64,000 bases of DNA from Fidelibacterota bacterium (GTDB lineage Bacteria > Fidelibacterota > UBA8477 > JABMPR01), in NCBI GenBank assembly GCA_016845065.1, contig JAERTG010000100.1, positions 107,360-171,359 on the forward strand, in the 5' to 3' direction. Of this stretch, positions 18,212-63,620 are shown one piece after another. Numbering within the stretch: position 1 is the stretch's first letter; each line of letters opens with the position of its first letter. Position numbers and translations under genes: made by a program. The notes beneath the pieces are model-generated. The model worked only from the letters and a program-made list of their open reading frames with translations, ran no database searches and was not told the DNA's origin.

Positions 18212-18255
18212 GATATGGAACTTTCCAGTTGGTTGAATAATAGCTGATCTCAAAG

Positions 18256-42051: not shown

Positions 42052-42055
42052 TCGT

Positions 42056-42589: not shown

Positions 42590-42629
42590 TTTATGGTCCT
42601 TATCACAATGCTTGCGCATATGCGTCTGA

Positions 42630-46515: not shown

Positions 46516-46552
46516 ATCTTTAATCTCAAATCTTAAAACTTAAATCAATCCG

Positions 46553-46638
46553 TGCCCGAGACTGGAGTCGAACCAGCACGCACAAAAGAGTGCACTAGGA
46601 CCTGAACCTAGCGCGTCTACCAATTCCGCCACCCGGGC
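46553..46638 (-). tRNA. tRNA-Leu (anticodon CAG), class II
   Basis: Minus-strand sequence GCCCGGGTGGCGGAATTGGTAGACGCGCTAGGTTCAGGTCCTAG...GGTTCGACTCCAGTCTCGGGCA. Acceptor stem pairs (one G-U). Anticodon loop TT-CAG-GT, long variable arm, discriminator A. Confidence 0.85.
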
Positions 46639-47338: not shown

Positions 47339-47604
47339 CTTGCATCTTTCTTACCTGCTTGTTGAGTGACACTAAACCCCAGATTAGGATTGGCAGGTTT
47401 GCCCAGAGCAGGTCATATCGCTTGTTCAGAATTTCGCTGATAATGGCAATACCCAACAGCAGGTCTATGGCACCATATGGTAAATAAGTGAGGAGTAGTT
47501 TGTTCATAAATTCTAGCTAATTGGTTCAATCCAAAAAATGGTATCTCACACAGCAGATTGAGTGAGACACCATTTCTATGAAAAAGCAGATCTGGTTTGA
47601 CTAA

Positions 47605-48663
47605 TTAATCGTTCCACTCCGCTTTGAAAATATGTGTGGCTCTGGGATTATCTGCGTCACGATTAGAAGCAAATGCCATATATTTTCCATCTGGGCTAAA
47701 CATGGGAAAACTATCAAAATATGTATTGTTGGTGAGTCTTTTTAGACCCGTACCATCAATCGCCACCATGTATAATTCAAAATTATGACCGAAGGCACCT
47801 GCCTCTTCATTCCAGTCATCCATATTGGATGAGAAAACAACATGCTTCCCATCAGGATGCCAGGACGGTGCCCAGTTAGTGGCTCCATTGTCCGTCAATC
47901 GTACTTTGTTCTGACCATCGACATCCATTGTATAAATTGATAAAGGTACAGCCTCAACCTGGTTCAGAGCCATATTTTCCTGCCATCGTAAGGTATCTTC
48001 AGCATTTTCAGGATACCAGGCACGCCAGACTATCTTTTTTGCATCAGGGCTAAAATAAGGTCCTCCATCGTAACCAAGGTGATTTGTGACTCGTTGGACA
48101 TCTGATCCATCCATATTCATTGTGAACAATTCGAGGTCATTGTCAATTTCAGAGGTGAAGATTACCCTGCCTGTTAGAAAGGAAACGGTTGGCTCAGCGT
48201 CATAGCCAGCATTCTCCCTGATTCGTACCAGATCAGTTCCATCTGGATTGGCTGAATAGATATCATAGGGAAATAGTGGCCAGAGGTATTTATTGCCCTG
48301 GGGCCTGGGTCTGGGTGGGCAACTGTCCACGATACCAAAGGTAGACGCAAAAATTATTCTGTCCTTCTCCATGCTATAGTAGGAACAAGTATTTGCACCA
48401 AGCTCGGGACTCACCATATGCTGATCACTGCCGTCTGCATTCATGACATAGATTTTATCACAACCATTCCCATCGCGCTTGCTCTGAAAGATAATCTGCT
48501 GACCGTAAGGTCCCCAATATGCTTCTCCATTGTCACCCTTGAAGGTCAATTGCTCTACGTTGGAAAGCCCAAATGGCTTTTCCTCAACAACGAGTTCCTG
48601 CTGTGTGGTACAGCTAATCATTGCCACACTCAGCACCAATAATACGCTAAACTTTATTTTCAA
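47605..48663 (-). CDS. TolB-like periplasmic/lipoprotein with PD40 (WD40-like) beta-propeller repeats
   Basis: Lipobox-like signal (AMISCTT). Repeated PD40-type blocks (YWGPYGQQIIFQSKRDGN, YSANPDGTDLVRI, FSPDAKKIVW, WHPDGKHVVFSSN, FSPDGKYMAFASNRD). Confidence 0.7.
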   Translation of the reverse strand: MKIKFSVLLVLSVAMISCTTQQELVVEEKPFGLSNVEQLTFKGDNGEAYWGPYGQQIIFQSKRDGNGCDKIYVMNADGSDQHMVSPELGANTCSYYSMEKDRIIFASTFGIVDSCPPRPRPQGNKYLWPLFPYDIYSANPDGTDLVRIRENAGYDAEPTVSFLTGRVIFTSEIDNDLELFTMNMDGSDVQRVTNHLGYDGGPYFSPDAKKIVWRAWYPENAEDTLRWQENMALNQVEAVPLSIYTMDVDGQNKVRLTDNGATNWAPSWHPDGKHVVFSSNMDDWNEEAGAFGHNFELYMVAIDGTGLKRLTNNTYFDSFPMFSPDGKYMAFASNRDADNPRATHIFKAEWND

Positions 48664-48704
48664 TTTACACTCCTGATTTTGTTTTTTTGTGAATCTGAAA
48701 AAAC

Positions 48705-49892
48705 CTATTTCTCTTCCAATTCAACACGATACAAAAGAACAGCATTGTGAATATGAATTGCAAATAGATCTTTTCCAATTTGAGATAATTTTGGTAATGT
48801 AGTTGTCCAGCTCCCAAATGAGCTGCGATGGGCGATCTGTCCCGTTTTACTCACACCTTCCAGCTCGAAATTTCGGTAGGCCTGTACCCCACTCTCAGTA
48901 AAAAAAGGTTCATAACGTATATAGAGGAACAAACCCCAGTTGGCGAGATAGTCAGCATCACTGATGGTAGATAAATCAATGGGGTGGTAACTTGAAATAA
49001 GCGAACCGTCTCCAAGATTAACAACATTCAAGTCTTTTTCGGAGACAACAAATGCCATCTCTCGTCCAAGTGAACTAATCTCCCAGGTCTTCCAGGGGAA
49101 CTGGGCCATGATTCGTTCTCTATTAAATAGAGTCAGGTTCGACTCAAAACCGTCATGAATCTCCAGAAAGTAATAATCTGTGCCTGGCACAGGTTCAAGA
49201 CCAACAAGTCGTCCCGGGACACTTACAGGGTTCGTCAGCAATTTGTCATGATTCCAGAGGTGAATATCGACAATTGACATGGAGTCGGGCTCGTCGGGCA
49301 TTAGGCAAGAGGAAGCCGTAATGAATTCATTCCGGTTAATCAACTTTGCCATCCTGAGATTTATTCCACATTTATCTTGATCACCGGGCACTACATTCTC
49401 CAAATAGAGTAGCGTGTCCTCATTGCCCAGCTCGAGAATCCAGGGTTGATCTTCCTGTGTGAGTAGAATCGTACCGTGAGTCGTGAGCTTTGAATTGAGT
49501 TTTCCCTCGCCCAAAGGGACACCATGAACCAGTGTGTAGTCTGGATTACCCTGATAATCATAGACCTGAAATGAGTAGAGTCTCTGGGGATTAAATGCAT
49601 CGATTGACTCGTTCTCCTGAATCAACACAAAGCTGGAAAGATCCTGATTTACTTTGAACTTATCATTTGGTGTGCGGTGGATTTGGATGACATGGTTGCC
49701 AAGACTGTCATAATAGGAAATCTGATTCTCGGTGATGGTATACATGATGGGAAAACCATTGGTGTTTGACCTGAATATGACCTCTTCAAGAGGGGTGTCA
49801 AATGTCCATTGGGCATATGGCTCAATATGCAAGACATCAGCTCTAGCAAGTTGTAGCAAAGTTAAAAAAAATACGAGATACCTAATTATCAC
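48705..49892 (-). CDS. Secreted hypothetical protein (395 aa)
   Basis: N-terminal signal peptide. No recognisable domain. Lies in the T9SS-linked operon. Confidence 0.5.
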   Translation of the reverse strand: MIIRYLVFFLTLLQLARADVLHIEPYAQWTFDTPLEEVIFRSNTNGFPIMYTITENQISYYDSLGNHVIQIHRTPNDKFKVNQDLSSFVLIQENESIDAFNPQRLYSFQVYDYQGNPDYTLVHGVPLGEGKLNSKLTTHGTILLTQEDQPWILELGNEDTLLYLENVVPGDQDKCGINLRMAKLINRNEFITASSCLMPDEPDSMSIVDIHLWNHDKLLTNPVSVPGRLVGLEPVPGTDYYFLEIHDGFESNLTLFNRERIMAQFPWKTWEISSLGREMAFVVSEKDLNVVNLGDGSLISSYHPIDLSTISDADYLANWGLFLYIRYEPFFTESGVQAYRNFELEGVSKTGQIAHRSSFGSWTTTLPKLSQIGKDLFAIHIHNAVLLYRVELEEK

Positions 49893-49899
49893 GGCTCAC

Positions 49900-52041
49900 C
49901 TATTTAAGCAAAACTATTTTTTGTGTCTTACTGTGTGCTTCGCCTTGAAGCAGCTGTACAAAATAAGCGCCGCTAGGGAGACTTATCCCATTATTATTTT
50001 TTGCATTCCAGGTCCAATGATAACTTCCAGGTATATCACTCCCCAATTTTGCATCAACCACCTGACTACCACTGATATCATAAATGAGTATTCTAGCACC
50101 AGAGTGCTGATTCAAATGGTACTCAATATTGACTGAAGCGTTAAATGGGTTCGGATATATTCTAGATATGGACATTTGTTGCGGCACTTGAGTATCTCTC
50201 AGGTCACTGGTTCCATCGAAGTACTGGAGGACACGGCCAACCAGCTCAGCGCGTTGAGTCTCTGTGTCAATGGTTTCGAAGGCCAAACCCATGACAAACG
50301 TTCCTGAGCTATTATCCAGAAAGCTCACTGCTGCATTCAAGCCATTCCCATATTGAAGGGCTATTTCTCCATTTGATGATACACCAAAATGATCAGGCCA
50401 ATCCTCTTCATAGGGACTGGTTCCATAATTAAAACTGATATCAGAAAAGTGAGGACCTACACCATTCACGGAGGGGTGATTACCATCATCACCCAGGTAG
50501 GTTATGTGCAAGGTTTCGTTCAAAAAAGCAATATCACTAGGAGATCCAACACTGAGATCATAGCCAATCTCTGCTCCAGACGCAAACAAGTAGCCACCTC
50601 CACCCAGATATTCAGAAATTACATTTTGCTCAGATGAGCTAAATGTTTCAGATGTTCTGCTATCATCCCCTAGAAACCAGAATACTGATGAGTAATCTTC
50701 GAGACTCTGAGCTTCTGTCACCCATTCATTGCTAGCCGATGCTATTGCGGCATCTGAACCGCTATTCACAATTGCTTCCGAATAGTATGTTGCGAAATCA
50801 TGTTGGATCGAGGTCCATGAACCATTTGTGCGATCAAAACCATCTACTATGAGAATTGTAGGTTGGGCGGCACTAAGACGTGCCCCATATGTGTCTGAAT
50901 ACCCACTACGATTCGGAATGGGTGCAGTATCCACTGCCAATAATCGAAATTGGATATATGAGTTTTCCGGAAATTCTTCTACCGTAAAACTAGTCAAATT
51001 CGAAGTGAGAATATCCGGCCCGTGATTCGAACTCCAGGTTGTTCCATTAAAAGAGAATTCCAGAATGTATCCACCAAGATCAGGATCATTCGGGCCTTCC
51101 CATTCCAGATATAACTGACCATCTGCGTTGGGTCCTACATAGGTGAAGTTGGGTTGACCGGGTGGAAGTAAGTCAACATCACTGAGTTGAACACGGACAT
51201 AGGTCGTATCCCAATTGTCGCGAGTATCTGAGCTCATGACAGATATGACATAGGGACCTGGTTCATAAATTGTACAGTCGAGATAGTCATTTGCTGTGAT
51301 TCGATTGGTGACAATATATCTGTATATACTCGTACTGGAGCCAGGCGCATAAACTCGGTTGATGTTTGAATTGGAATACAGCTCATCAGCTTCGAACCAA
51401 AAATGTGGTCCACGTAAAACTTCAGACGTGTCTGATGAGTGTAATGCCCATCCAATAGTGTAGATGCCGTTGTTCATATCAATACTGGACCATAGATCTG
51501 TTGTGTCAGCTGCCTGTGCGATAATATCCACATGTCCGCTGAGTGTTACTCCAGGAAAAGCTGCAGAGCTACCATCTCTAACAAATTGAATGATTGGAGA
51601 CCGGGGATGATAGGGATCCACAAAAGGTGTGAGTTTCCCCGGTAAAAGTGGGTTACCGGTGGGGTGTCCGCTTGCACCACCCCCATAGTTAAGATGAATA
51701 TGAGCATAACTGTCTGTATGACCCACCACTGCTCCCTGAGCGACGGTATTTCCTACTTGAAGTCCTGCCAGAGGAATTACATGGACATAGGCAAAATCTT
51801 CGACACGAATCCAATCCGACCCAATACCAGTCACGGTGCCAGCCATGATGCTCAGGGCATTTTCACCAGGAGCTAAGGGCATATCGGTACCATTGTGAAA
51901 ATGGTCCCTGTCTTCTCGGCATTCATCAAATGTAGCAGATATGCGATGTTGTTGATCCATGGGTGCCATGGGCCATGGGAAGTTGTTTATCTGAGCCATA
52001 AGACTCAGAGGCAGCAGAATAAGAAGAGTTTTAAGTGGCAT
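49900..52041 (-). CDS. Secreted M23/LytM-family metallopeptidase with FN3-like domain and canonical T9SS C-terminal sorting domain
   Basis: M23 motifs (HNGTDMP...AG and AHIHLNYG). FN3-like block (PPGQPNFTYVGPNADGQLYLEWEGPNDPDLGGY). C-terminal domain of about 85 aa (IYPNPFNASVNIEY...GAYFVQLL...KIVLLK) matches the T9SS type-A CTD pattern. Confidence 0.8.
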   Translation of the reverse strand: MPLKTLLILLPLSLMAQINNFPWPMAPMDQQHRISATFDECREDRDHFHNGTDMPLAPGENALSIMAGTVTGIGSDWIRVEDFAYVHVIPLAGLQVGNTVAQGAVVGHTDSYAHIHLNYGGGASGHPTGNPLLPGKLTPFVDPYHPRSPIIQFVRDGSSAAFPGVTLSGHVDIIAQAADTTDLWSSIDMNNGIYTIGWALHSSDTSEVLRGPHFWFEADELYSNSNINRVYAPGSSTSIYRYIVTNRITANDYLDCTIYEPGPYVISVMSSDTRDNWDTTYVRVQLSDVDLLPPGQPNFTYVGPNADGQLYLEWEGPNDPDLGGYILEFSFNGTTWSSNHGPDILTSNLTSFTVEEFPENSYIQFRLLAVDTAPIPNRSGYSDTYGARLSAAQPTILIVDGFDRTNGSWTSIQHDFATYYSEAIVNSGSDAAIASASNEWVTEAQSLEDYSSVFWFLGDDSRTSETFSSSEQNVISEYLGGGGYLFASGAEIGYDLSVGSPSDIAFLNETLHITYLGDDGNHPSVNGVGPHFSDISFNYGTSPYEEDWPDHFGVSSNGEIALQYGNGLNAAVSFLDNSSGTFVMGLAFETIDTETQRAELVGRVLQYFDGTSDLRDTQVPQQMSISRIYPNPFNASVNIEYHLNQHSGARILIYDISGSQVVDAKLGSDIPGSYHWTWNAKNNNGISLPSGAYFVQLLQGEAHSKTQKIVLLK

Positions 52042-53213
52042 TACCGGCTTATCTCAAGCCATTCATAGTTCGTTCCTATGAAGAATCGGTCACCATCATT
52101 TTGAACTTGAAATAGTTTGGGAAAACGGGGATCGATTTGTACATCGGTGTTTTCTAGAGACTGAGGAAAAAAGATTTGTGCGAAGTGTGTATTTCTTTTG
52201 GCAAAGAAATCTGCGGCAACACGAATGATTGCTACCTCACCGCGGTTGTTAACTGACAATCCTAAACAAATGCGATTATTGTTGTCAAATCTAATTTTTT
52301 CAACTCGTTTGAAGTTCAGATCAAACAGCTGAATGTATTCATGACTGCTAAGGACTGCGAGATAGCGGCCATTGGCAGATAATTTAAGCTCATGACCATA
52401 ATTCTCATTATTCCAGAGCATCTTCCCATCACTGGTAAGTTCAACAATCATGGGTTTCATTTCCTGATCAACTGCGGAATAATCGTAGCCACTGACGAAG
52501 AAGCGTTGATTTTGAAAAACCAATTTCTGCAAATAGGTAAATGGTAAATAAGCAGTTTTCTGTTCACGACCGTTGCTGTTTATGCGAATAAACAGAGATT
52601 TTCCAGCTGGACCACCATTAAATCCAGGTCGTTCAAGTAATATGTAGCATTGATCCCCAATCCACTGCAAGAGAACATTGCGCTCCATACTCATCTCCCC
52701 ATCATCTTCATACAACTGTCCTTCTGAGATGAGGTTACCAGATTCATAGAACCAGATCAAAGCCTTTACTGGATCCACGAGGGCGAGGATGCCCTTATCA
52801 GATATTGCAGATACCAGCGGTTTGAGATCTGCATCAGAACCTCGATTTACTGTATAAAGCAATTCGGAGTGATCATCCAACACGAAATAGTCTGAATACC
52901 GTTTGTTGTTTTTTATTTCACCCAAATCCTGGAGGCGTGAAACAAGTCGATACTCCCCATTTGGTGAGAGGGTAATTGTGGATTCTGGATCATAAGCAGA
53001 TATTCTTCTAATCGATTGATTATCAATGGAATACTTAGCACTACTTGAAGTATAATATAGTGGACGTCCATCCACCGATACCCATGAAATAGCGGCATCA
53101 TCGACTTCAATAATTTGATCTATCTGGAATGCAGATACCCCCCCGGATAGCATTATCAACAGAGCTAATAAAGACGCATTGCTAATTTTCATTGGCTTCC
53201 TTCTCTCCTTCAA
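52041..53213 (-). CDS. Secreted hypothetical protein (390 aa)
   Basis: Signal peptide (LLALLIMLSGGVSA). No recognisable domain. Stop overlaps the M23 gene start by 1 nt. Confidence 0.5.
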   Translation of the reverse strand: MKERRKPMKISNASLLALLIMLSGGVSAFQIDQIIEVDDAAISWVSVDGRPLYYTSSSAKYSIDNQSIRRISAYDPESTITLSPNGEYRLVSRLQDLGEIKNNKRYSDYFVLDDHSELLYTVNRGSDADLKPLVSAISDKGILALVDPVKALIWFYESGNLISEGQLYEDDGEMSMERNVLLQWIGDQCYILLERPGFNGGPAGKSLFIRINSNGREQKTAYLPFTYLQKLVFQNQRFFVSGYDYSAVDQEMKPMIVELTSDGKMLWNNENYGHELKLSANGRYLAVLSSHEYIQLFDLNFKRVEKIRFDNNNRICLGLSVNNRGEVAIIRVAADFFAKRNTHFAQIFFPQSLENTDVQIDPRFPKLFQVQNDGDRFFIGTNYEWLEISR

Positions 53214-53243
53214 ATTCGATTATCAGAATATGAGAAACACCGG

Positions 53244-54284
53244 TTAAAATTCCAAACTTATACTAAAGCGACGAGTATCATTCAATATTCCCCAATCACC
53301 ATAGGCAAGATCCAGTTTAAAACGAAGGTTGCGGGCGATAAGAAAATTTACACCTCCCCCAACATTAAACCCTTCTGGAGAAAGGGTGTTACCATCTTCA
53401 TCCACATCATCAAGATAGAATGTCTGACCAGCTCTGAGGAAAGCCAAATCCATTAGATTGAATTCTCCACCAATACTAACACTCTCAGAATAGTTGTTGG
53501 GATGAGCAGCATCTACAGCCAGTGTGAGCTTACCGTGACGTATTTTCACTACATCTGCCGCCAAACCAACCCTGAAAGTTAGAGGAAGTGACCAGTAGTC
53601 TGTGTCGAGGTGGGCATTGATGCGGGAATTGTTACCTTCCTGATCGGGAGCAACATCAACCTCGATCAGTGTGTCATCCCCCTTCAACTGCATTTTACCA
53701 CCGAAGTTTGACACGCTCATGCCAACTCTCAGGTCTCTGAACTGAGTTTTGAAGGTGGTTCCGAGATCCACAGCTACTGAGCTGGCTTTCATATGCCAGA
53801 TACGTTCCTCAATATATTTCACATTAGCGCCGAAAGTAAATCGATCCGTAAACTTTCTGCCCCATCCTAGGGTTGCCGATAGATCAGTAGCTCCGAAGCG
53901 TTCTCCAGTACCATCTGGTTGGTCAATCGTGGTGACATCCATTTCTTCAATGGAGATACTGGTCAGGGCTACACCAACAGTACCCAAATTACCCATGGGG
54001 AAGGCAGCTGATACATTGTTAAAACTAATACCTGCCAGCCAATTGGTCTGGATAAAACTCACTTCGCTCTTATTCATCAGAGCCAAGCCACCTGGATTCC
54101 AGTACAATGAATGGACATCATCAACTACAGCAACATACGCATTACCCATAGAAGTACCCCGAGCTCCGATTCCAATTTCCAGGAATGACGCAGCTGTGGT
54201 ACCCCGTTTTGAGACAGCCTGTGTGGTTGTGACCAATAATAGGAAGATGATTGCGATACGAATGGAGTTTCTTGATAGTTTCAT
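53244..54284 (-). CDS. PorV/PorQ-family (FadL-like) outer-membrane beta-barrel protein, copy B
   Basis: After the signal peptide: GTTAASFLEIGIGARGTSMGNAYVAVVDDVHSLYWNPGGLA, the conserved N-terminal block of T9SS PorV/PorQ-type proteins. Beta-barrel-like alternating pattern and a C-terminal aromatic (F). Paralogous to 62569..63615. Starts 9 nt after the stop of the giant CTD protein. Confidence 0.6.
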   Translation of the reverse strand: MKLSRNSIRIAIIFLLLVTTTQAVSKRGTTAASFLEIGIGARGTSMGNAYVAVVDDVHSLYWNPGGLALMNKSEVSFIQTNWLAGISFNNVSAAFPMGNLGTVGVALTSISIEEMDVTTIDQPDGTGERFGATDLSATLGWGRKFTDRFTFGANVKYIEERIWHMKASSVAVDLGTTFKTQFRDLRVGMSVSNFGGKMQLKGDDTLIEVDVAPDQEGNNSRINAHLDTDYWSLPLTFRVGLAADVVKIRHGKLTLAVDAAHPNNYSESVSIGGEFNLMDLAFLRAGQTFYLDDVDEDGNTLSPEGFNVGGGVNFLIARNLRFKLDLAYGDWGILNDTRRFSISLEF

Positions 54285-54293
54285 GTCAACCTC

Positions 54294-57200
54294 CTACTTA
54301 ATCACTGCAAATTTGCTGACATGATTACCAATTCCAGGTGCTTCTACGTGGTATAGATACACGCCATAGGCAATCTCCAATCCATCTCTAGACAGGAGAT
54401 TCCAGGATTCAGCACCATCCCATATTTCAGCATTATGATTGATGGAATTCACAAACTTTCCACTCAGGGTATAAATACTGATCGTACATTCCGGAGGCAA
54501 ATTGATGAAGTCTATCTTGCGCACTCCCCGTCCAGAATCATAAAGATGCTGTGGTTCCCAGGAGGCTGTTACCACATAAGGATTTGGTACCACTGAGATA
54601 TCCTCCAGAAGGCTTGAGGGAGCGTTCACATCGATATCACCACCTGTGGCAGAGAAGGTCAGCACATCATGAGCAGAGAAGGGTTTTCTCGACTTGACGA
54701 TGAATTGATCACCAGGTTCTGGAGCCCAGTTATCCCATACACCATCCTTCAATCTTGCTACTGAATTTTCAGTACCAATCCAAATCGCTCCATCGTCAGT
54801 TTGATTTATGCACTGAAGAAGGTTAGTGCCAAATGCGGCTACATCATCCTTGGTATAGGCAGAGTAGACGGTATCAACACCATTGAAGTCAATTACGTTG
54901 TAACCTTTTTTGGTAACAAGATGGACTTTTCCATCTGAGGCAACTATGAGATCATTCACTTTTCTATCTAGTATGCTATCTTTATTTGCATAGGTAACAC
55001 TATCCAGGGCAAAGTTGTAGATTACCAACCCTTTGTCCTTAGTACCAATAAATAGTTCGGCCTGGTTGGTAGCGAGGGAAATAATTTTATCAGTTGGTAG
55101 GTTAGAATTAGTCTTGTTTAAATACCAGAAGCTAGTATTGGATGGTTGGTAAAACTCAATTCCTTCTGATTGGGTACCGACAACAATAGTTCCATCATCC
55201 AGAGAAATCAATTCTGTGGATGCATTTTGTAATACACCTGTCATTACTGAGTCTCCACTAATGGTATTGAACTCCCCATTATTGAAATTGACAGAGGTGA
55301 TTGCATTTACACCCCAAATCTCTCCTATTTGAGTCTGGTGCCAATCCCATCGAAAGATCCCTTTTGATGAAATGGACCATAAAATGCCATTTTTGTCCTC
55401 CAAAACTCTATGAAATTGGAGATATTCATTCTTCACACCTTCAGAATTATCAGCATCAACTACAAGATCAATTTGGTAATTCTGCCAACCATATTGATTG
55501 TGAACACTCAATCCTCCCGTGGATCCCACCATTATGTTGCCAGAAATATTATAAGATATATCCAAAACATTGTTGGTAAGTAGACCCGCATCATCTTTTA
55601 TGTTACCCCAGGTTTCTCCATCATATAAACCAAGGCCCTGACTTGCAGTGGCAAAAACAGTAAAGTCATCCCATTGAGCAATACGATTCACATTACCAAC
55701 CTTGGACTGACTCACCATTTTCCAGGTCACACGATCTTCGCCACCAGCTAAAATGGTGGGATAAATCACAGAACCAGGTCTGAGGGTCGTATCCGACAGA
55801 GTCTGAGCTATTAATCGCACTGGAAGATCATTGGTGAGATCTCTCATGCTGAATGCCATCCGTTTGTTCAGATAGATAGATGTATCAGTAACTGTCGGAT
55901 TGATGGTCAATTGATAATCAAAGGGAACTAATTTGAGGTCAACGTTATTATGTCGTTCCGGATAGAGATTGATTTCATAGTTCAAACCGGTTCTCATCCA
56001 CCCAGTTTCCTGTTCATTCAATGCAATCACATCATTGGTAACATTTATCTTGAATCCCTCTGTGACCATACCTCGTCCCTCTCCTGAAAAGTTGGTCTGG
56101 TCTGAAAGTAATACATTACCAGTGGTCAAGTTTGTAAGCTGATAAGAGCTTGTGTGGCGCGGAACCTCATCAACATCATTGGCATCAAAATGAGGCTCAC
56201 CTGCATCTGGCATGGCGTTGGCCTGTGTTCCGTTTGGATTTGTCAACTCGTTCCAATTGTCCTGGTTGGGATCACCACCCAGATTTAGCTCCGTTTCAGA
56301 GCAGGGATTCAATGGATCCCCTGTTTCAAATGCATCATTACAGCCATCAGATCCAAGATCATCATAGATTTCTTCCCACCCATCCCATAAACCCAATGTT
56401 GGATACAGTGTGAAGGTCGTATCTGGAATCTCCACAAAATATTGGAGGTAAGTCGAATCGTCCACAGTCACGGTCTGCGTGTCAACGAATGAGGTGATAA
56501 AATTGAACCCGTTAAAAATAAAATTAGTCGTACTCTCGGTAATCCCCTGAAAGAGATGAGCCCCGGGAAGTGTAAATATCAGGGTATCAGAATTTGGGGG
56601 GATCATCATCTCCAGCGTACTATTCAGAGTAATAGTAGTTGAGTCATCAGTCCAGGTGCGCCAATCACCATCATTGTCGATACCATCTTCAGACCAATCC
56701 CTGAATGTGATCTGGTATTGATCCATATTTCTGATTTTGGATGGATCAACCACTTCAATTTCCAGTGATCCTGTTCCCAGCGTTGTGGCTGCATCAGCTA
56801 CAATTTCAGGTGGTAAATATGCCATTGCAGGTGCGTTTGGCACTGCAACACCAGTATTGATACCGAATTTTACGGGAATTCCAGAAGCATTGATCTCTAT
56901 CTTCTTGGTACACTCAGAAGGTGTAATGGGTGGTCTCAGTTCAATTTCAGAAATCCCGCGATCATAAAAATCATAGTCGAACCCATAATCATAGGCTACA
57001 ACTGCGTAATAATATGTTTGCCCGTTGTTAACCGTCGTATCTGTCCAGGAGTGCCTTATACCAGTATCAGTACCCATATCCAGGTGAATACCGTTCAGAC
57101 CATATGGATGTGGACCTACCAGGCCATCTGCCTTGTCAAATTGAGCAATGGGCTTGTTAAAGGTCTGATTGCCATAAGTATCCGTAATATTCCAGACCTC

Positions 57201-59096
57201 ATTGAAGGCTGGGTCAGTAGCACGATATATGCGATAGCCCTCAAAATCATTTCCATAGATGGGATCCAGACTGTATTCGGCCTTATCATCCCAATATAGG
57301 GTGACCTGCCCATCTCCAGGAACCACGGTGAGTTTTGGGAGGTTTGGTGGTTTAGCAAAATTATAGTCACTATTGTAAATCTGCTGCATGGTCTCAGAAT
57401 TACGCAAGATATCCTCATAATCATTTCCGAATATGAGTGCTACAGCAAATTTTCGTTCCTCTTGCTGGGGAAGCTCAAAGTAGGCTGATCCATACATGAA
57501 GGTTAGATCAACAGTTTGGGAAATATCTGTAAAAGACCCTGGTGATAGTTGTTCCCAGGCATTTGCATCACGGGTAAGATCAATACCCGGGTATGGACCG
57601 GCTGTAAAACTTGTGAGACCAATCTGGTCAGATTCATCATTATCTGTGTATTCAAAATTTGGCTCACCTGGATCGGGTACGCCATTTCCTTCGGTTCCAT
57701 CTGCATCAGGACCTAGATATTCACCGAAATTCGGTCCAACACCATCAGAACCTGTATCATCCACATAGGGGTCCCAATCACCATCATTGTCAATCCCATC
57801 ATCTTGACTTTCGTCAATCATTCCGTCTTCATCATTATCACGACTATCCAGGGGGTTTCCTGGTGATTCGAGATATTTCCAACCAAAATATGCTGGAACA
57901 TATCCACCATCATTTACGGTCCAAAGGTCATGATCCCACTGATAAACAATGTCATTTACGGTATCAAACCAGGCATCATCATCCCGTTGATCTCCATCAT
58001 CACCAACATCAGCATCCCCATACATGCCAAAGATGAATTTTTGATAATCCCAGGAACTGATATTCTGGATCCAGTAGGTAAAAATCAAAATATCTTCTGC
58101 AGCTGGATGTGCCCATTGATAACCTCTTGCAGAGACATCTACACCGAGACCTCTTTTAAGACCATCATAGATGTAATAGTCCATATCCTGATCTGAAGTG
58201 TTGGCACGACCAGCAAACGTTTTGATCAGGATTTGGTTATCGTTTATAATTTCTTCGATTTCATACCACTTATCATCAAGAACCCGAACTACATCCGGGC
58301 GTCGTCCATCTCTTGGATCAATTGCGTCTGATCGAGCAACATCCCGTACCAGACCATCAAATGTGGTATTCATATCCGTAAGGATAGCATAATCATTGGA
58401 GTCAGAATTGGCCAATTGAACAATACTTCCAGAATGAAGCACAGTATCTACCAGGATGGGATAGTGTTTAAATTCATCATTGTTAAAGTCATCCATGTGG
58501 AAGTAGCTTTCCTGATCTGCGCGACTGTACTGACCGTACTGACCGGCCCATCTGTTATCCCATTCAGAGGAAAGGTTTGCCCAACTATCGGGCCATGAAA
58601 GACTATCGTCACTCATTGCTATGAGTGAATCATTTGTATTCGCATATCCCAGTCTCGGTTCAAACTGCCAGAGATAGTCATCTGATGTTGGCTTGTCGAT
58701 GGAGCTTGAGGGCATTCCCTCACTGACAATATGCAGTGGAGCACCGTTGGCATTTGGGGTTTCTGCAGCCACGAGTGGTGAGAATTCTGCAAGGTATGAA
58801 CGTCCGCTACCAATAGGATAGATACCACAATCATATCTTCCTGGTGAGTTTCTCCAATCCGCGATGGATCCATAATTTGTGAATCTCGTGAGAATTTTAT
58901 TGCCATTGTGTACACCAAGCCTGCGATTACCATGTCCATTGGCGTCAGTACCCAGGGTACCCACTTTTCTCAATATATTTGGTTTGGGATGAATGTTTTT
59001 ATCTGAGCTCGCTGCTTCCAGGACAAAGGGAACTGCCAGGAAGACCACCATCAGTATTATAGTCTTATTGATTTTCATTGCTAGCCCTTGACTCAT
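54294..59096 (-). CDS. Giant secreted T9SS cargo protein (1600 aa): Asp-rich Ca-binding repeats, FN3-like domain, Cys-bracketed D-rich module, Reg_prop-type beta-propeller repeats, variant C-terminal sorting domain
   Basis: Signal peptide. TSP3-like DxDxDG repeats (DNDEDGMIDESQDDGIDNDGDWDP...) at about aa 360-495. FN3-like block at about aa 585-705. A GSDGCND...PCSETELNLGGDPNQDNWNELTNPNG module at about aa 905-980. Two-component-regulator-propeller-like repeats at about aa 1140-1490. C-terminal domain VVPNPYVVTASWEP...ISIYTLSGKFV...AYGVYLYHVE...KFAVIK. Confidence 0.8.
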   Translation of the reverse strand: MSQGLAMKINKTIILMVVFLAVPFVLEAASSDKNIHPKPNILRKVGTLGTDANGHGNRRLGVHNGNKILTRFTNYGSIADWRNSPGRYDCGIYPIGSGRSYLAEFSPLVAAETPNANGAPLHIVSEGMPSSSIDKPTSDDYLWQFEPRLGYANTNDSLIAMSDDSLSWPDSWANLSSEWDNRWAGQYGQYSRADQESYFHMDDFNNDEFKHYPILVDTVLHSGSIVQLANSDSNDYAILTDMNTTFDGLVRDVARSDAIDPRDGRRPDVVRVLDDKWYEIEEIINDNQILIKTFAGRANTSDQDMDYYIYDGLKRGLGVDVSARGYQWAHPAAEDILIFTYWIQNISSWDYQKFIFGMYGDADVGDDGDQRDDDAWFDTVNDIVYQWDHDLWTVNDGGYVPAYFGWKYLESPGNPLDSRDNDEDGMIDESQDDGIDNDGDWDPYVDDTGSDGVGPNFGEYLGPDADGTEGNGVPDPGEPNFEYTDNDESDQIGLTSFTAGPYPGIDLTRDANAWEQLSPGSFTDISQTVDLTFMYGSAYFELPQQEERKFAVALIFGNDYEDILRNSETMQQIYNSDYNFAKPPNLPKLTVVPGDGQVTLYWDDKAEYSLDPIYGNDFEGYRIYRATDPAFNEVWNITDTYGNQTFNKPIAQFDKADGLVGPHPYGLNGIHLDMGTDTGIRHSWTDTTVNNGQTYYYAVVAYDYGFDYDFYDRGISEIELRPPITPSECTKKIEINASGIPVKFGINTGVAVPNAPAMAYLPPEIVADAATTLGTGSLEIEVVDPSKIRNMDQYQITFRDWSEDGIDNDGDWRTWTDDSTTITLNSTLEMMIPPNSDTLIFTLPGAHLFQGITESTTNFIFNGFNFITSFVDTQTVTVDDSTYLQYFVEIPDTTFTLYPTLGLWDGWEEIYDDLGSDGCNDAFETGDPLNPCSETELNLGGDPNQDNWNELTNPNGTQANAMPDAGEPHFDANDVDEVPRHTSSYQLTNLTTGNVLLSDQTNFSGEGRGMVTEGFKINVTNDVIALNEQETGWMRTGLNYEINLYPERHNNVDLKLVPFDYQLTINPTVTDTSIYLNKRMAFSMRDLTNDLPVRLIAQTLSDTTLRPGSVIYPTILAGGEDRVTWKMVSQSKVGNVNRIAQWDDFTVFATASQGLGLYDGETWGNIKDDAGLLTNNVLDISYNISGNIMVGSTGGLSVHNQYGWQNYQIDLVVDADNSEGVKNEYLQFHRVLEDKNGILWSISSKGIFRWDWHQTQIGEIWGVNAITSVNFNNGEFNTISGDSVMTGVLQNASTELISLDDGTIVVGTQSEGIEFYQPSNTSFWYLNKTNSNLPTDKIISLATNQAELFIGTKDKGLVIYNFALDSVTYANKDSILDRKVNDLIVASDGKVHLVTKKGYNVIDFNGVDTVYSAYTKDDVAAFGTNLLQCINQTDDGAIWIGTENSVARLKDGVWDNWAPEPGDQFIVKSRKPFSAHDVLTFSATGGDIDVNAPSSLLEDISVVPNPYVVTASWEPQHLYDSGRGVRKIDFINLPPECTISIYTLSGKFVNSINHNAEIWDGAESWNLLSRDGLEIAYGVYLYHVEAPGIGNHVSKFAVIK

Positions 59097-62000
59097 ATTG
59101 AAGTTGAGAAACCGATTCGAATCTGTCTAGGAGACGAATAGTAGCTCGGTCTGTTTAAATATTCTTCAATCGTATTGTAATTCCAGCCAGGATCCTGGGT
59201 AGTATAGGTTGGAATAAGTGAATACCCAGAGCGACCTGTATCCGAATAAACAGAGACTTCGTTTCTTATATCGAGAAGGTTATAAACATTGGCCGTAAAT
59301 CCTATTTCTCGACCTAGCAGCATAAACTTCTTGGAGATTCTCATATCTACGTTGATTTGGGTTGGTCGACGACCGCTGTTCTCGAAGCTACCTCCCACCA
59401 GATTCAATGAAGTCGGGGTATAAGGTAATCCAGATCCATACTCACCAATGAAACTGAGGTTGACCTTATATGGTAGTTTAAACAAAACAGAGCCATTGAG
59501 TGTGTGCCGTTGATCCCAATCCAGATAGACTAATTGCTTCTCTGTATCACGATTATTCTGAGCATCCCAAAATGCAGATCTTGGGTCAGAGGCATTACCT
59601 TCAGCTACACTGTAGGTATAGTCCAGGTTAGCTGAAAATCCTTGTGAGAGTCTTTTTGTCAAGGAAACGGTAATTCCCTTTACGTTTCCATAATCACGGT
59701 TGACATAAACTCCATATACCTCATTAGTGTAGGTCGTGACAATCTTTGAACCCAATAAATTACTGATATCCTTGTAGAATCCAGTTACATCTACACCTAT
59801 ATCCTCTCCAAACTGCTGCTGAAACCCAACCTCGTACTGGACGGTCTTTTGAGGTTCCAGGTCTGCATTACCCATAGTAGCAGAAGCAATGCTCCCTCCT
59901 GCCGGCACTTCGAAATCAGGATTTATATAGAGATAGGTATAACTCGGTATTTGGAAGAAGTGGCCATAGGAGAAGTGCAAGACACCCTTATCGGTGATTG
60001 GATAGGCCATGGCCAGTCGAGGACTGAATTGTACCTTCTTGGAAGCCTCCTTGAACCAGTACTCCATGCGATCTTCCAGAGTTTTTGCGTTAGTATCAAC
60101 CGCTTCATCCTCTGAAATCTGACCATTCCCGTCTATATCATGAAATCTGTTAACCAATTTAAGGGGTGATTTCGGATTAGGATCTGATGGATCCGAAGGT
60201 GTCACACCATCTGGATCAAATATTTCGTATCTCAACCCTGCATTCACTATCATATCCACAACTTCGATCTTATCCTGGAGATAAACTGCAAACTCAGAAG
60301 GATTCTTGACCATCTCACTATATGTTGGTGTTGTGGGGCTTACATCGGGTGTAAGAATTTGCGGTGTGAAATATCCTTCGGCTGGATCGTAAATGATGGA
60401 AAAGTCCCTTCGAAAGATGCTGGTGTATTTGTATTCAAGACCACCTTGCAGCTGATGCATTTTATTTATCTGGTTGGTCATATCAAATTTGATCAATTGA
60501 CTACGTGTCATCCGATACAGGTGGTATTTAGAGATACCACCCAGGTTGAATTTCTGACCGACTGAGGCATCAAGAATATTGTTGTCATTCTCATAGTCCT
60601 CAAGATTGTTGGAATCATAAGCAGTATCTGCAGGCATATCAAAATCGGAGATATTGAACATGTTCGACATAAATATCTGATTCCAATTGACATCATAAAT
60701 GGGTTCATAATAGGATCGACCCAAATTCCCAAGAATTGACGCCTTGACACTATAGAAGGCCTCGGGGCTGAGTGTATGTTGTAGAACAAGACCTATATTC
60801 ATATTGGTCCCATAAGAAGTCGCTCGTCCCTCGGGCGTATATTTCCAGTTTAGCGAACTACTGTTGTAAGTTTCTGAACTTCCGTAAAGAACATTGAGAG
60901 AGAGTTTTAATTGTTGTGTGAAGCGATGTGTAAGTTTTCCCTGAAGGTTAAGACTCTTTGAGTTATATAGTGGCACTACGGCGTTGTCACCGCGCATATT
61001 CGTCCATTCCCCGTCCTGGTCCCCATCTATGTACCATTCACCACTCAAAGCGCCATTGCCATCCAGATCTTCGTAGGTTACCTCAGGAAAACCAACATCT
61101 GTATCGACGTCTGAATCCCATTCTCCATTGCCATTGTTATCTCGATACCAGGTGCCAGTGGCATTATCGAGGAATACATCTGGGTCGATGGGATAAACAC
61201 GATCACCACCATCCCATAGACCGTTTCCTGATTCACCACCATCTCTGATGTTATTGCCTTCTCCACCATTGGGATTGAGATAGAAGTCCCAATTATCTCC
61301 ATTGGGATCATCACCCAGGTTTAAGGGTACACTGGAGCAGCCTCCTGTTCCATTTTCATATTCATCGGGACAACCATCCTCACCATAATCGATATAATCA
61401 GAGAAATATTCACCATTTTCAATGGGCATGGAATTGGTGTTATCCCAGTAAAAAGAATCAGTATTAAATCGTCGCACACCATATAGACGACCAGCCAGAT
61501 CTTCATACCTGCCTGAAGTAAAAAATGATGTCGTCTTTGCCAGTCCAGGCACCGGTCCACTCATACTCCACTGGAAATCATGTCTACCCTGGGGCGTAAA
61601 GACATCAGGATTGGTTCCAAAAATGTCTACTTTAGAAATGTCGAGATCATCTTTTAAAGCCAGATCTCCAGGAATAATACCAAGATATATTTCAGGATCT
61701 GGAGATATATAGCGACCATAGCGATAGCTCAGTTCACCGGAATAATCACTCAAACTTCCATCCTTGGTGATGATATTGATAATACCTGACATGGCCTGGC
61801 CATATTCAGCGTTGAATGTTCCTGAAATAACCTGTAGTTCCTGGATGGCATTGTTTTCAATACCAACACCCATATTCTGACCGTAGGAGTTTGTGACTGG
61901 GATACCATCAATCAGGTAAGCAACTTCAGAGGATCGTCCACCGCGGATATGAATTGCCCCAGAGCCATCGACAACCACACCAGCTTGCAATGAGACAGCA

Positions 62001-62440
62001 GCCTGGAATGATTCAACGGGTAATGCTTCTAGCTCTGCCGAACTAATGTTGGACTGGGCATGTGTAATATCAGCTTGTATCATGGACCGATCCGCTGTAA
62101 CAGTAACCACATCTCCCTCGATAATACTGAGTGTCATCTGGACATCCTGGGTCGTGGTCAAATCAACCATGATGCGGATACCATCAATCACTTGTTCTGA
62201 ATAGCCAATCATGGAACAGCGAAGTTGATACTCACCAGGGGCGATATTCAGGATATAGAAATTACCGTCCATATCCGTCGCTCCACCCTGACCGGTAGCC
62301 GGCAAGAATACATTTACTCCAATTAGGGCCTCACCTGTACTTAGATCGGTAACCCGACCTGTCAATTTTCCTGCAGTTCCTGAGAACAGAAATTGAGCCC
62401 CAATCAATAGAATTAGAGATATACGACATAGATTTTTCAT
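59093..62440 (-). CDS. TonB-dependent-receptor-like outer-membrane protein (CarboxypepD_reg domain, plug and barrel) with a large Asp-rich insertion
   Basis: N-terminal carboxypeptidase-regulatory-like domain (GKLTGRVTDLSTGEALIGVNVFL...DGNFYILNIAPGEYQL), TonB-box/plug region (VVTVTADR...IDGIPV) and a beta-barrel-like C-terminal body. Insertion at about aa 350-480 (GEDGCPDEYENGTGGCSSVPLNLGDDPNGDNWDFYLNPNG...). ATGA overlap with the downstream giant cargo gene. Confidence 0.75.
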   Translation of the reverse strand: MKNLCRISLILLIGAQFLFSGTAGKLTGRVTDLSTGEALIGVNVFLPATGQGGATDMDGNFYILNIAPGEYQLRCSMIGYSEQVIDGIRIMVDLTTTQDVQMTLSIIEGDVVTVTADRSMIQADITHAQSNISSAELEALPVESFQAAVSLQAGVVVDGSGAIHIRGGRSSEVAYLIDGIPVTNSYGQNMGVGIENNAIQELQVISGTFNAEYGQAMSGIINIITKDGSLSDYSGELSYRYGRYISPDPEIYLGIIPGDLALKDDLDISKVDIFGTNPDVFTPQGRHDFQWSMSGPVPGLAKTTSFFTSGRYEDLAGRLYGVRRFNTDSFYWDNTNSMPIENGEYFSDYIDYGEDGCPDEYENGTGGCSSVPLNLGDDPNGDNWDFYLNPNGGEGNNIRDGGESGNGLWDGGDRVYPIDPDVFLDNATGTWYRDNNGNGEWDSDVDTDVGFPEVTYEDLDGNGALSGEWYIDGDQDGEWTNMRGDNAVVPLYNSKSLNLQGKLTHRFTQQLKLSLNVLYGSSETYNSSSLNWKYTPEGRATSYGTNMNIGLVLQHTLSPEAFYSVKASILGNLGRSYYEPIYDVNWNQIFMSNMFNISDFDMPADTAYDSNNLEDYENDNNILDASVGQKFNLGGISKYHLYRMTRSQLIKFDMTNQINKMHQLQGGLEYKYTSIFRRDFSIIYDPAEGYFTPQILTPDVSPTTPTYSEMVKNPSEFAVYLQDKIEVVDMIVNAGLRYEIFDPDGVTPSDPSDPNPKSPLKLVNRFHDIDGNGQISEDEAVDTNAKTLEDRMEYWFKEASKKVQFSPRLAMAYPITDKGVLHFSYGHFFQIPSYTYLYINPDFEVPAGGSIASATMGNADLEPQKTVQYEVGFQQQFGEDIGVDVTGFYKDISNLLGSKIVTTYTNEVYGVYVNRDYGNVKGITVSLTKRLSQGFSANLDYTYSVAEGNASDPRSAFWDAQNNRDTEKQLVYLDWDQRHTLNGSVLFKLPYKVNLSFIGEYGSGLPYTPTSLNLVGGSFENSGRRPTQINVDMRISKKFMLLGREIGFTANVYNLLDIRNEVSVYSDTGRSGYSLIPTYTTQDPGWNYNTIEEYLNRPSYYSSPRQIRIGFSTSI

Positions 62441-62474
62441 ACTAGTCTCGCCTTAGTTGTTACTGTTAGCAGCG

Positions 62475-62502
62475 TATATAAATAATTAAGGCACCTCTTC
62501 AA
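62475..62502 (-). promoter_or_regulatory. Candidate sigma70-like promoter for the TBDR-cargo operon (TTGAAG - 16 nt - TATATA)
   Basis: On the minus strand the -35-like TTGAAG maps to plus 62497-62502 and the -10-like TATATA to plus 62475-62480, about 35 nt upstream of the ATG at 62440. Weak evidence. Confidence 0.25.
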
Positions 62503-62568
62503 TATCCGCGGATACCTAAAAGATGCCTTGACTACTACTTACCTATAGTGAGGTAATCCCCTTAGGCA

Positions 62569-63615
62569 TTAAAAATACAAGCTTAGATTAAATCTTTGGA
62601 CATTGTTCAGACGCCCAAAATCAGCATAAGCATAGTCAAATCGTAATCCTGAGGCAGATCCAAATATGGGCAGATCAAATCCTGCTCCGAATGTGAAACC
62701 TTCCTCGCGAGCTTCAAGGTCAGAGGCTGCAAGACTGGTGTTGGTCTCAACAAAGGGTGATTTCCAACCCCCTCTTAGAAAGTATTTATCCAATATATTG
62801 AGCTCAGTACCGATATTGATTGATTCATAATTGTCATTTGGATGAATAGCATCTACTGCCAATGTCAATTTGGTAACGCCAACTTCAATCACATCCATGG
62901 CAACACCCACACGAAAGATGAGTGGTAAATCCCAGTCATCCAGTGCATAATCAACTGGAATAGCATCATTATTGCCTTCAAAGCCAGGTGCGGGGTCATA
63001 ACGTTCCAGAATATCCCGGCCGGACATCCTTAAACTCGATCCATAATTGGATATACTCATTCCGAGACGCATATCATTGAACTGGGTCCTGAACAGGGTA
63101 CCTACATCTACAGCCATAGCGCTAGCCCGGCTATGCCAGATGGTCTGCTGTATATATTTACCATTAAATCCAATCGAAAAACGATCTGTGAGTGATCTTG
63201 CCAGAGTTACCTGAAGCGCTAAATCGCTGGCAGTAAATTCCTCACCGGTTCCGTTGGGTTCCAGTTCAGTTGTCACAGGCATATCATCCATTGTTAAGGA
63301 GGTAACACTCAGACCAACAGTACCAATCCCATATAGAGGAAAAATAACACCCATGTAGTTGATGGCCACATCAGCAATCCAATTGTTCCGAAGGAACATG
63401 ATCTCGCCACCACCAGCCTGAGCAATACCAGCTGGGTTCCAATAGAGTCCTGAAGCATCGCGGCTCATGGCGACATATGCCTCACCCATACCAGTAGCTC
63501 GGCTACCAATACCTATTTTGAGAAATTGTGCTGCAGTCGTACCACCCTTGTATTGTCCAAAGCTCATTGAAACAGCGATTACAAGGAGCATGATCATTTT
63601 CTTCTGCATGGTCAA
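62569..63615 (-). CDS. PorV/PorQ-family (FadL-like) outer-membrane beta-barrel protein, copy A
   Basis: After the signal peptide: GGTTAAQFLKIGIGSRATGMGEAYVAMSRDASGLYWNPAGIA, plus a C-terminal FNLSLYF. Paralogous to 53244..54284 at roughly 40-45% identity by eye. Starts 5 nt after the stop of the upstream partial giant-protein gene. Confidence 0.6.
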   Translation of the reverse strand: MTMQKKMIMLLVIAVSMSFGQYKGGTTAAQFLKIGIGSRATGMGEAYVAMSRDASGLYWNPAGIAQAGGGEIMFLRNNWIADVAINYMGVIFPLYGIGTVGLSVTSLTMDDMPVTTELEPNGTGEEFTASDLALQVTLARSLTDRFSIGFNGKYIQQTIWHSRASAMAVDVGTLFRTQFNDMRLGMSISNYGSSLRMSGRDILERYDPAPGFEGNNDAIPVDYALDDWDLPLIFRVGVAMDVIEVGVTKLTLAVDAIHPNDNYESINIGTELNILDKYFLRGGWKSPFVETNTSLAASDLEAREEGFTFGAGFDLPIFGSASGLRFDYAYADFGRLNNVQRFNLSLYF

Positions 63616-63620
63616 TCTCC

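Follow-up and report, generated by a model that had tools for sequence, protein, structure and literature searches.

This analysis concerns a stretch of 64,000 nucleotides (nt), hereafter the window, to which all positions refer, from the genome of an uncultured marine bacterium of the Marinimicrobia (Fidelibacterota; SAR406). Seven consecutive open reading frames (ORFs) on its minus strand, designated here genes 1–7 (Table 1), are supported by sequence comparison as one conserved, terminator-bounded unit and not chance neighbours. The function that we favour for this operon, with a probability of about one half, is that of a TonB-dependent system for capture and import at the outer membrane, in which a giant secreted protein with a C-terminal domain (CTD) of the kind associated with the T9SS (type IX secretion system) would be docked on a PorV/PorQ-like barrel. 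Uptake is preferred because of the invariant TonB box of the gene 1 product, the presence of a TonB gene beside a related SAR406 module, the supersandwich fold of the giant and the hydrolases that vary by lineage around its genes. An earlier annotation made from the letters alone (the sequence-only reading) had proposed a dedicated cell-surface apparatus, possibly for adhesion, predation or bacteriolysis, or envelope remodelling. The apparatus itself is supported, and the coordinates and strand given for the seven ORFs match those in the window exactly; adhesion, predation and envelope remodelling are less favoured than TonB-dependent capture and uptake, and bacteriolysis by the M23 enzyme of gene 5 is less likely.

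The unity of the locus is most apparent from its conservation. Proteins encoded in the window were compared by BLASTP with the ORFs of 80 genome loci. Homologs of the giant that share its length of 1600 amino acids (aa) carry the names Marinimicrobia, Neomarinimicrobiota or Fidelibacterota, and are encoded in 16 of the loci, across which identity to the gene 2 product falls from 89% to 51%. The full order, namely TonB-dependent transporter, giant, PorV-like barrel, 390-aa protein, M23 peptidase with CTD, 395-aa protein and PD40 propeller, followed by a gene for a 205-aa membrane protein, is detected in nine of the 16, and the remaining seven agree with it up to the limit of the locus or of BLAST detection. 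The genes therefore travel together in related genomes, in keeping with the sequence-only reading, and are not scattered. Immediately upstream, another transporter–giant–PorV set is found in all 16 loci. Beyond the clade with the 1600-aa form only genes 1–3 stay together. This triad, with the transporter gene directly upstream and the PorV-like gene directly downstream of the giant, was observed for 48 of the 60 giant-family genes with enough flanking DNA, and comes from Marinimicrobia, KSB1, Zhuqueibacterota, Calditrichota and unclassified metagenome-assembled genomes of the Fibrobacterota–Chlorobiota–Bacteroidota (FCB) group. Triads are often arranged in tandem, two or three per locus, with 35–47% identity between paralogs, and each tandem triad has its own pair of giant and PorV paralogs. 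Independent gene calls and precomputed Pfam annotations confirm the arrangement. The evolutionary core of the system is thus genes 1–3, genes 4–7 being an accessory set confined to one Marinimicrobia clade.

The window itself ends in the tail of a tandem upstream triad, cut by the window edge (62569-64000). The barrel encoded there is 45% identical to that of gene 3 (BLASTP, E = 5e-105), and the truncated ORF upstream of it carries a CTD-like tail paralogous to that of the giant. In two relatives (L003 and L018) the counterpart of this truncated ORF is about 1600 aa long and 35% identical to the gene 2 product.

The sequence-only reading placed the 128-nt spacer at 62441-62568 inside the locus and assigned to it a weak sigma70-like promoter. 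The spacer is instead the upstream boundary of the locus, and no such site is present on its coding strand. A scan of that strand with the sigma-70 consensus revealed no recognisable promoter; sigma-70-like sites in the region as a whole numbered 37 against 45 in shuffled sequences, and thus were fewer and not enriched. What the spacer does contain is a hairpin (Table 1), which recurs at the same position in relatives with a different sequence, six of its 13 pairs being compensatory in an alignment of eight sequences. Its probable role is to end the upstream triad and to delimit the unit on the 5' side, although it could be a 5'-leader element instead. At the other end, the region of the terminator that follows gene 7 (47339-47620) folds with a z-score of -2.9, and the hairpin is also present in the closest relatives (L003 and L009). 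No minus-strand terminator-like hairpin occurs in any junction among the seven genes, which are therefore flanked by two terminator-like elements with none between them. Co-transcription of the seven genes, as proposed earlier, would be in keeping with the terminator-bounded unit and the conserved order. As a separate observation, a tRNA T-arm-like sequence (GCGGGTTCGAATCCGCGC) lies within 100 nt past the PD40 gene in three relatives (L006, L008 and L018); the window shows a plain terminator at the equivalent place, and a tRNA-Leu further on, at 46552-46638.

Table 1. Features of the seven-gene locus and its upstream flank (positions in the 64,000-nt window)
Feature	Position	Strand	Basis or remark
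Gene 1, Oar-like TonB-dependent transporter, 1115 aa	59093-62440	-	PF13715, PF13620, PF07715, PF00593
Asp/Cys-rich insert of gene 1	61232-61396 (residues 349-403)	-	motif common to the giant
Gene 2, giant secreted protein, 1600 aa	54294-59096	-	very conserved family, typically ~1100 aa
Giant insertion, ~residues 800-1460	54717-56699	-	Reg_prop-like beta-propeller and 57-aa Cys/Asp-rich motif
Giant CTD	54297-54611	-	type A CTD-like; 16-aa insert past PNPY; ends KFAVIK
Gene 3, PorV/PorQ-family 14-strand-type outer-membrane barrel, 346 aa	53244-54284	-	NF033709 (PorV_fam), 202.4 bits (cutoff 90)
Gene 4, secreted WD40-like beta-propeller, 390 aa (probably 383)	52041-53213	-	ortholog profile
Gene 5, T9SS cargo enzyme, 713 aa	49900-52041	-	Por_Secre_tail, 36.8 bits
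Gene 6, secreted protein, 395 aa	48705-49892	-	distant paralog of gene 4
Gene 7, lipoprotein with a PD40 beta-propeller, 352 aa	47605-48663	-	PF07676, 94.5 bits; lipobox MISC
PorV/PorQ-family paralog, 348 aa	62569-63615	-	NF033709, 203.6 bits (cutoff 90)
Upstream giant paralog, 3' end at window edge	63621-64000	-	translation; CTD-like tail ...GKFAVIK
Hairpin and U/A-rich run in spacer upstream of gene 1	62488-62529	-	fold z -2.8
Rho-independent terminator	47534-47577	-	16-bp stem then UUUUUU; 28 nt past gene 7 stop

The gene 1 product had been described as a barrel like those of TonB-dependent receptors, and this holds. Behind a signal peptide it displays CarboxypepD_reg domains, a Plug (PF07715, 41.5 bits) and a barrel domain (PF00593, 83.4 bits), and between the N-terminal domain and the plug lies a TonB box, DVVTVTA, the core of which, [VI]TVTA, is invariant in 12 orthologs. 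Plug, barrel domain and TonB box together identify the protein as a TonB-dependent transporter. The barrel model PF25183 is found on its homologs in other lineages. Membership of the SusC/RagA family was considered and rejected: the score against TIGR04056 was 78.9 bits (cutoff 368.25), and the match was restricted to the N-terminal 200 residues. Among the eight window proteins scanned against Pfam and NCBIfam no SusD-family match was obtained, and hence no SusD-like lipoprotein is adjacent; to our knowledge, Marinimicrobia lack SusD. The transporter and the giant have in common a 57-aa motif rich in Cys, Asp and Gly, located in the insert of the former and at 56196-56366 (residues 911-967) of the latter. 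The two copies are 51% identical (E = 3e-13) and follow the pattern DGCxDxxExG...CSxxxLNLGxDPNxDNW...NPNG, which matched no assigned family; the motif may be a Ca-binding or contact module.

The giant itself combines a signal peptide with a supersandwich core whose Asp-rich loops are of the Ca type, an FN3 domain, further beta-sandwiches and the CTD. The core fold is galactose-mutarotase-like, of the supersandwich type known from carbohydrate enzymes. Two insertions are specific to the clade of the window, at residues ~214-310 and ~800-1460, the second of which is absent from the homologs of about 1100 aa. The Reg_prop match within it is weak on the window protein, and PF07494 is precomputed on most of the 1600-aa homologs; apart from this, the family has no Pfam, NCBIfam or PDB sequence match, and all of its named members are annotated as hypothetical protein. 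Conservation is nevertheless high outside the insertions: compared with ~1100-aa proteins of other lineages, identity is 62% over residues 311-800 and 56–57% over the N- and C-terminal parts, and about 150 positions, including those in the Asp-rich loops, are invariant among 45 giant-family sequences. The C-terminal tail of about 100 residues aligns with the profile of the type A CTD of the gene 5 family (HHalign, 94.9%, E = 4.5e-8).

The gene 3 product was correctly recognised from the letters as a PorV-like barrel (Table 1). Assignment to one of the equivalogs within this family was attempted and rejected for PorV (NF033710, 68.5 bits against a cutoff of 250), PorQ (NF033711, 93.8 against 220) and PorV2 (NF052325, 81.3 against 325), PorQ giving the best score at this level, and no PorP/SprF-family match was returned by the Pfam and NCBIfam scans. 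T9SS has been reported for the FCB superphylum (PMC9127263), and there are precedents both for an uncleaved CTD kept on its cognate barrel and for cargo and barrel genes that lie clustered (PMC10202324, PMC9143113, PMC10947112). By analogy, we propose that the gene 3 barrel is a dedicated dock for the CTD of the giant. The CTD homology and the PorV/PorQ-family barrel also bear out the more general expectation of an outer-membrane or cell-surface system that depends on T9SS-type sorting signals.

Gene 5 was read earlier as an M23 peptidase with a CTD. The CTD part of this description is secure, since the type A CTD is recognised at 36.8 and 38.3 bits, whereas the M23 part is below threshold on the window protein and is supported at the level of the family. 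The order of domains is signal peptide, M23 (51652-51909), Ig/FN3, a GATase1/ThuA-like domain (50206-50877) and type A CTD (49903-50160). PF01551 scored 17.4 bits against a gathering threshold of 28.7, and is present on full-length homologs at 36–42% identity. Across 35 sequences there is no variation at H47, H49-N-G-T-D53, H87 and H114-I-H116, among which are the HxxxD and HxH motifs, and the family profile matches M23 enzymes of the PDB, namely 9gy1 (E = 1e-8), 5kqb, LytM, lysostaphin and ShyA. The AlphaFold model has a pLDDT of 86; in the Foldseek search seeded with it, tandems of FN3/Ig domains dominated and M23 structures were not among the matches listed, and the M23 assignment therefore rests on sequence-profile evidence. 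The middle domain, an alpha/beta fold without annotation, is widespread, with at least 1571 cluster representatives in an exhaustive HMMER search. A T9SS CTD comes after the domain in 37 of the 53 proteins sampled, and within the same sample the domain is fused to Amidase_3 (nine proteins), beta-lactamase-family (three), M23 (three) and M28 (two) domains, and also to M14 or C1; fusions to Amidase_2 and GH18 were encountered in other homologs.

The three remaining products are propellers or related to them. Gene 4 has no Pfam match, and its ortholog profile matches WD40 propellers in the PDB (PkwA, E = 9e-8). For gene 6 there was no match in Pfam or NCBIfam, nor in the PDB with the ortholog profile; it is related to the gene 4 profile over 266 columns (HHalign, 83%, E = 9e-6). 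Gene 7 was rightly seen as encoding a PD40 propeller lipoprotein, on the evidence of PF07676 and the lipobox. The label 'TolB-like' does not apply to it: the TIGR02800 score is 132.4 bits against a cutoff of 343 and covers the propeller only, the signal is that of a lipoprotein, and there are no tol/pal genes in the window.

The hydrolases with a T9SS CTD that lie beside triads vary by lineage, and may be of the M23, GH18 or M28 type; FG-GAP or Reelin-like CTD proteins, and M20/M28 peptidases with an amino-acid permease, are found there as well. In lineages other than that of the window, M28 or GH18 domains fused to the gene 5-type middle domain and a CTD are encoded directly past the PorV-like gene, and FG-GAP-CTD proteins and M20 peptidases are encoded near the triad. 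In a KSB1 genome (L083:14000-21402, GCA_034506335.1) two triads stand in tandem, and beyond them the opposite strand encodes Amidase_2, Memo, a NamZ exo-muramidase and an SLT-LysM protein, a set that, judged by its annotated domains, looks like a peptidoglycan-turnover neighbourhood. A SAR406 locus (L084:2913-13385) has a four-gene module, in which a 683-aa protein with a Reelin-subrepeat-like domain and a type A CTD is joined by a transporter, an 1122-aa giant and a PorV-like barrel, with a TonB_C gene divergently upstream. The exact sequence of this 1122-aa giant is indexed in 255 blocks of the contig collection.

In the import system that we favour, the Oar-like transporter of gene 1 would be the TonB-dependent conduit. 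The giant, which we infer to be exported by T9SS, would keep its CTD uncleaved and dock through it on the gene 3 barrel, as in the PorZ/PorQ, PorU/PorV and SprB-type/PorP-SprF pairs. Docking would place the supersandwich and propeller modules at the cell surface beside the transporter, where they would bind a polymeric substrate, a role equivalent to that of SusD and the surface glycan-binding proteins in Bacteroidota. The M23 endopeptidase of gene 5, secreted through T9SS, would cut the substrate, and the propeller proteins of genes 4, 6 and 7 might act as accessory binding factors or in periplasmic hand-over. Three features together suggest a logic like that of polysaccharide utilization loci (PULs): the supersandwich fold, hydrolases that differ between lineages, and several diverged triads in one genome. 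As to the substrate, peptidoglycan or another peptide-containing polymer appears most likely, given the enzyme partners: the fusions of the middle domain to Amidase_3 and other hydrolases, and the NamZ, Amidase_2 and SLT-LysM genes of the KSB1 locus.

Several observations weigh against the import system. None of the T9SS core genes (sprA, porK/L/M/N, porU) is present within the 64-kb window, and the tail of the giant is below both curated CTD models (PF18962/TIGR04183 and PF13585/TIGR04131; for CHU_C, 20.6 bits against 27). The structural model of the giant family is of moderate quality (pLDDT 74, pTM 0.58) and its Foldseek TM-scores are low. The M23 gene accompanies the triad in one clade only. 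Oar-like transporters have a documented export role in Myxococcus, where Oar is needed for PopC secretion, so that transport by the gene 1 product might also be outward. Finally, best-segment identity is higher for the giant core (52–63%) than for the transporter (40–47%) or the barrel (39–50%). This is the opposite of the situation in SusC/SusD, and it fits an enzyme or a part of a machine better than a substrate-specific binder.

Because the giant is more conserved than either of its partners, an envelope role like that of PorZ–PorQ stays a live rival, although we consider it unlikely. The triad would then be a conserved envelope machine resembling the T9SS attachment complex, with the giant in the place of PorZ and the barrel in that of PorQ; it would handle lipopolysaccharide (LPS) or an S-layer glycan, and the gene 1 barrel would be structural or a conduit. 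Besides the very conserved core of the giant across phyla and the PorQ score of gene 3, the succession of a Reg_prop-type propeller and a CTD in the 1600-aa form recalls PorZ, and PorZ and PorU are among the Foldseek hits of the giant family, albeit at low TM-scores. Furthermore, surface proteins in the BAM complex of Bacteroidota have a FadL-type barrel, BamG, as their platform (PMC12578637), a precedent for FadL/PorV-type barrels in such a role. On the other hand, two or three triads per locus that have diverged as far as those described above form a picture typical of loci for the uptake of specific substrates, an intact TonB box and the TonB gene beside the SAR406 module speak for active transport, the neighbouring genes encode hydrolases and permeases and not LPS or T9SS functions, and the PorQ, PorV and PorV2 equivalog models failed by a wide margin.

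Somewhat more doubtful is an adhesin or contact apparatus of the SprB–SprF type, in which the giant would be an adhesin held on its cognate barrel for contact with particles or prey, and the M23 enzyme a bacteriolytic weapon. The giant is indeed large, all-beta and rich in Ca-type motifs, with FN3 and propeller modules, and fragments of grappling-hook proteins are among the weak Foldseek hits; cargo and barrel genes are clustered as for adhesins with type B CTDs (PMC10202324, PMC9143113); and gene 5 appears to encode a secreted M23 enzyme of the lysostaphin/LytM family with an intact active site. However, such an apparatus would leave the pairing with a TonB-dependent transporter unexplained. 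Adhesins are usually repetitive and fast-evolving, whereas the giant core is 55–63% identical across phyla. The barrel, moreover, belongs to the PorV/PorQ family and has no PorP/SprF-family match in the two scans, and no gliding genes are nearby in the window.

It is improbable that the gene 1 barrel works outwards, as Oar does for PopC, and exports the giant or the M23 enzyme to the PorV-like barrel as receiver, in a secretion route independent of T9SS. The architecture of gene 1 is of the Oar type (CarboxypepD_reg and Plug together with a barrel that exceeds 900 aa, and PF25183 in the homologs), the motif common to transporter and giant suggests direct contact between them, and the core T9SS genes were not seen in the window. 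Yet the tail of the giant is homologous to bona fide type A CTDs, and ordinary cargo with type A CTDs is common in the same loci, which implies a working T9SS; a folded, beta-rich protein of 1100–1600 aa would also be an unlikely passenger for a plugged 22-strand barrel.

Spacing between the genes says less than synteny about the unity of the locus. The seven genes, all on a single strand, are separated by -4 to 41 nt (or up to 51 nt once the start of gene 4 is revised as discussed below), but the minus strand carries 48 of the 51 window genes, and of the 40 same-strand gaps elsewhere in the window 21 do not exceed 50 nt, the median same-strand gap being about 15–23 nt. Six successive tight junctions have a probability of about 0.02 and are only weakly unusual, because tight spacing is the norm across the window; it is therefore conserved synteny that carries the case for an operon. 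The notion that unrelated neighbours were merely packed together by genome streamlining, for which this compactness and the overlaps among clearly unrelated housekeeping genes could be cited, is ruled out for practical purposes by synteny, the order being conserved over wide divergence and the triad across phyla, by the hairpins that flank the seven genes and are missing inside, and by the export signals on all seven products. GC skew is negative in every 2-kb bin of the window (1-64000); together with the strand bias this is in line with a single replichore in a compact genome whose genes are strongly co-oriented.

Most of the junctions described in the sequence-only reading are present as given: the ATGA overlap of genes 1 and 2 (59093-59096), the 1-nt overlap of genes 4 and 5 at 52041 (TAATG), and the gaps of 9, 7 and 41 nt. 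The 30-nt gap before gene 4 becomes 51 nt when the start of this gene is revised. The ATG at 53192, seven codons into the ORF (Met8), is preceded by GGAGAGAAGGAAG, a strong Shine-Dalgarno sequence, and independent gene calls on identical metagenome contigs give a protein of 383 aa as against the 390-aa ORF; judging from these signals, 53192 is the more likely start. The giant may likewise start at Met7, in which case the ATGA overlap would be replaced by a 14-nt gap. Translational coupling, which had been extended to the whole operon, is suggested at the two overlapping junctions only, the other genes having Shine-Dalgarno-like sequences of their own.

The rest of the window is of housekeeping character, with alaS, recA, dnaX, obg, dprA and genes for glycine cleavage, GGT, signal peptidase and a Na/Pi transporter. 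At 18262-18357 on the minus strand lies a bacterial small signal recognition particle (SRP) RNA (50 bits), which reaches into the 5' part of the longest dnaX ORF (16418-18361), and the true dnaX start is therefore placed further downstream. The minus-strand ORF at 39017-39970 (317 aa) looks like a fusion of two genes, with RNase HII at residues 7-184 and a UPF0102/YraN-like domain at residues 206-298. At 41302-42670, also on the minus strand, two overlapping ORFs encode a Lamin-tail-domain protein and a beta-propeller protein of the SdiA-regulated/phytase-like type; Lamin-tail domains also occur in T9SS-CTD proteins near triads in two SAR406 loci (L043 and L054).

Marinimicrobia count among the dark ocean's most abundant uncultured bacteria, and their uptake of polymers is poorly understood. 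A wider proposal, which we put forward tentatively and regard as possible rather than probable, is that the triad is an undescribed import complex of several phyla, a counterpart of SusCD in which a capture protein delivered by T9SS sits on a barrel of its own. It would occur in FCB bacteria outside Bacteroidota (Marinimicrobia, KSB1, Calditrichota), the capture protein being docked non-covalently and not as a lipoprotein, and in the clade of the window the M23 enzyme and the propellers would serve to harvest peptidoglycan or peptide polymers from marine organic matter. If the import model is right, it would show how FCB bacteria outside Bacteroidota build surface-assisted TonB import, would carry the docking of T9SS cargo on PorV-like barrels over into nutrient uptake and into further phyla, and would provide a testable candidate for scavenging of peptidoglycan or peptides in the deep sea. 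From these sequences the complex of the triad could be both predicted and purified.

A literature search turned up no account of the triad, of the giant family or of any Marinimicrobia T9SS, and the Caldithrix genome paper mentions neither the triad nor a T9SS in Marinimicrobia. The parts are known, namely a TonB transporter, CTD cargo of T9SS, a barrel of the PorV family and an M23 enzyme; no description seems to exist of their fixed combination or of its occurrence beyond Bacteroidota, and each part can be compared with a characterised system. Gene 5 resembles the M23 endopeptidases LytM and lysostaphin in the invariant HxxxD and HxH motifs and further His, and its profile matches solved enzymes. 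It differs from them in that the M23 domain, which is below the Pfam threshold, is fused to Ig/FN3, GATase1/ThuA-like and type A CTD domains and has no LysM or SH3b targeting domain.

Gene 1 shares with Oar of Myxococcus xanthus the CarboxypepD_reg domain, the Plug and the oversized barrel (~1000–1100 aa), and PF25183 is found on its homologs. Oar, however, is a solitary gene implicated in protease export, whereas gene 1 belongs to a triad with T9SS-type cargo and a PorV-like barrel, and has a Cys/Asp-rich insert in common with that cargo.

The pairing of giant and barrel is reminiscent of PorZ–PorQ, PorU–PorV and SprB–SprF. In all of these the gene for a barrel of the FadL/PorV superfamily directly follows that for a large secreted protein whose C-terminal sorting domain is a beta-sandwich, and paralogous pairs may stand side by side (PMC10202324, PMC9143113, PMC10947112). 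In contrast to them, gene 3 is not an equivalog of PorQ, PorV or PorV2 and lacks a PorP/SprF match; the CTD of the giant resembles type A but has a 16-aa insert, and it falls short of both curated models; the pair is joined to a TonB-dependent transporter in 48 of 60 cases; and the host phylum lies outside Bacteroidota.

With the SusC/SusD and RagA/RagB PULs, finally, the locus has in common that the gene for a transporter with a CarboxypepD_reg domain adjoins the gene for a surface partner together with those for secreted or surface hydrolases, and that several diverged copies are present per genome, with enzyme genes that change from locus to locus. It departs from SusC/SusD PULs in that no SusD-like gene is present and the transporter fails the SusC/RagA model. 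The partner is here a protein of 1100–1600 aa with a T9SS-type CTD and a barrel of its own, not a lipoprotein, and it is more conserved than the transporter beside which it is encoded.

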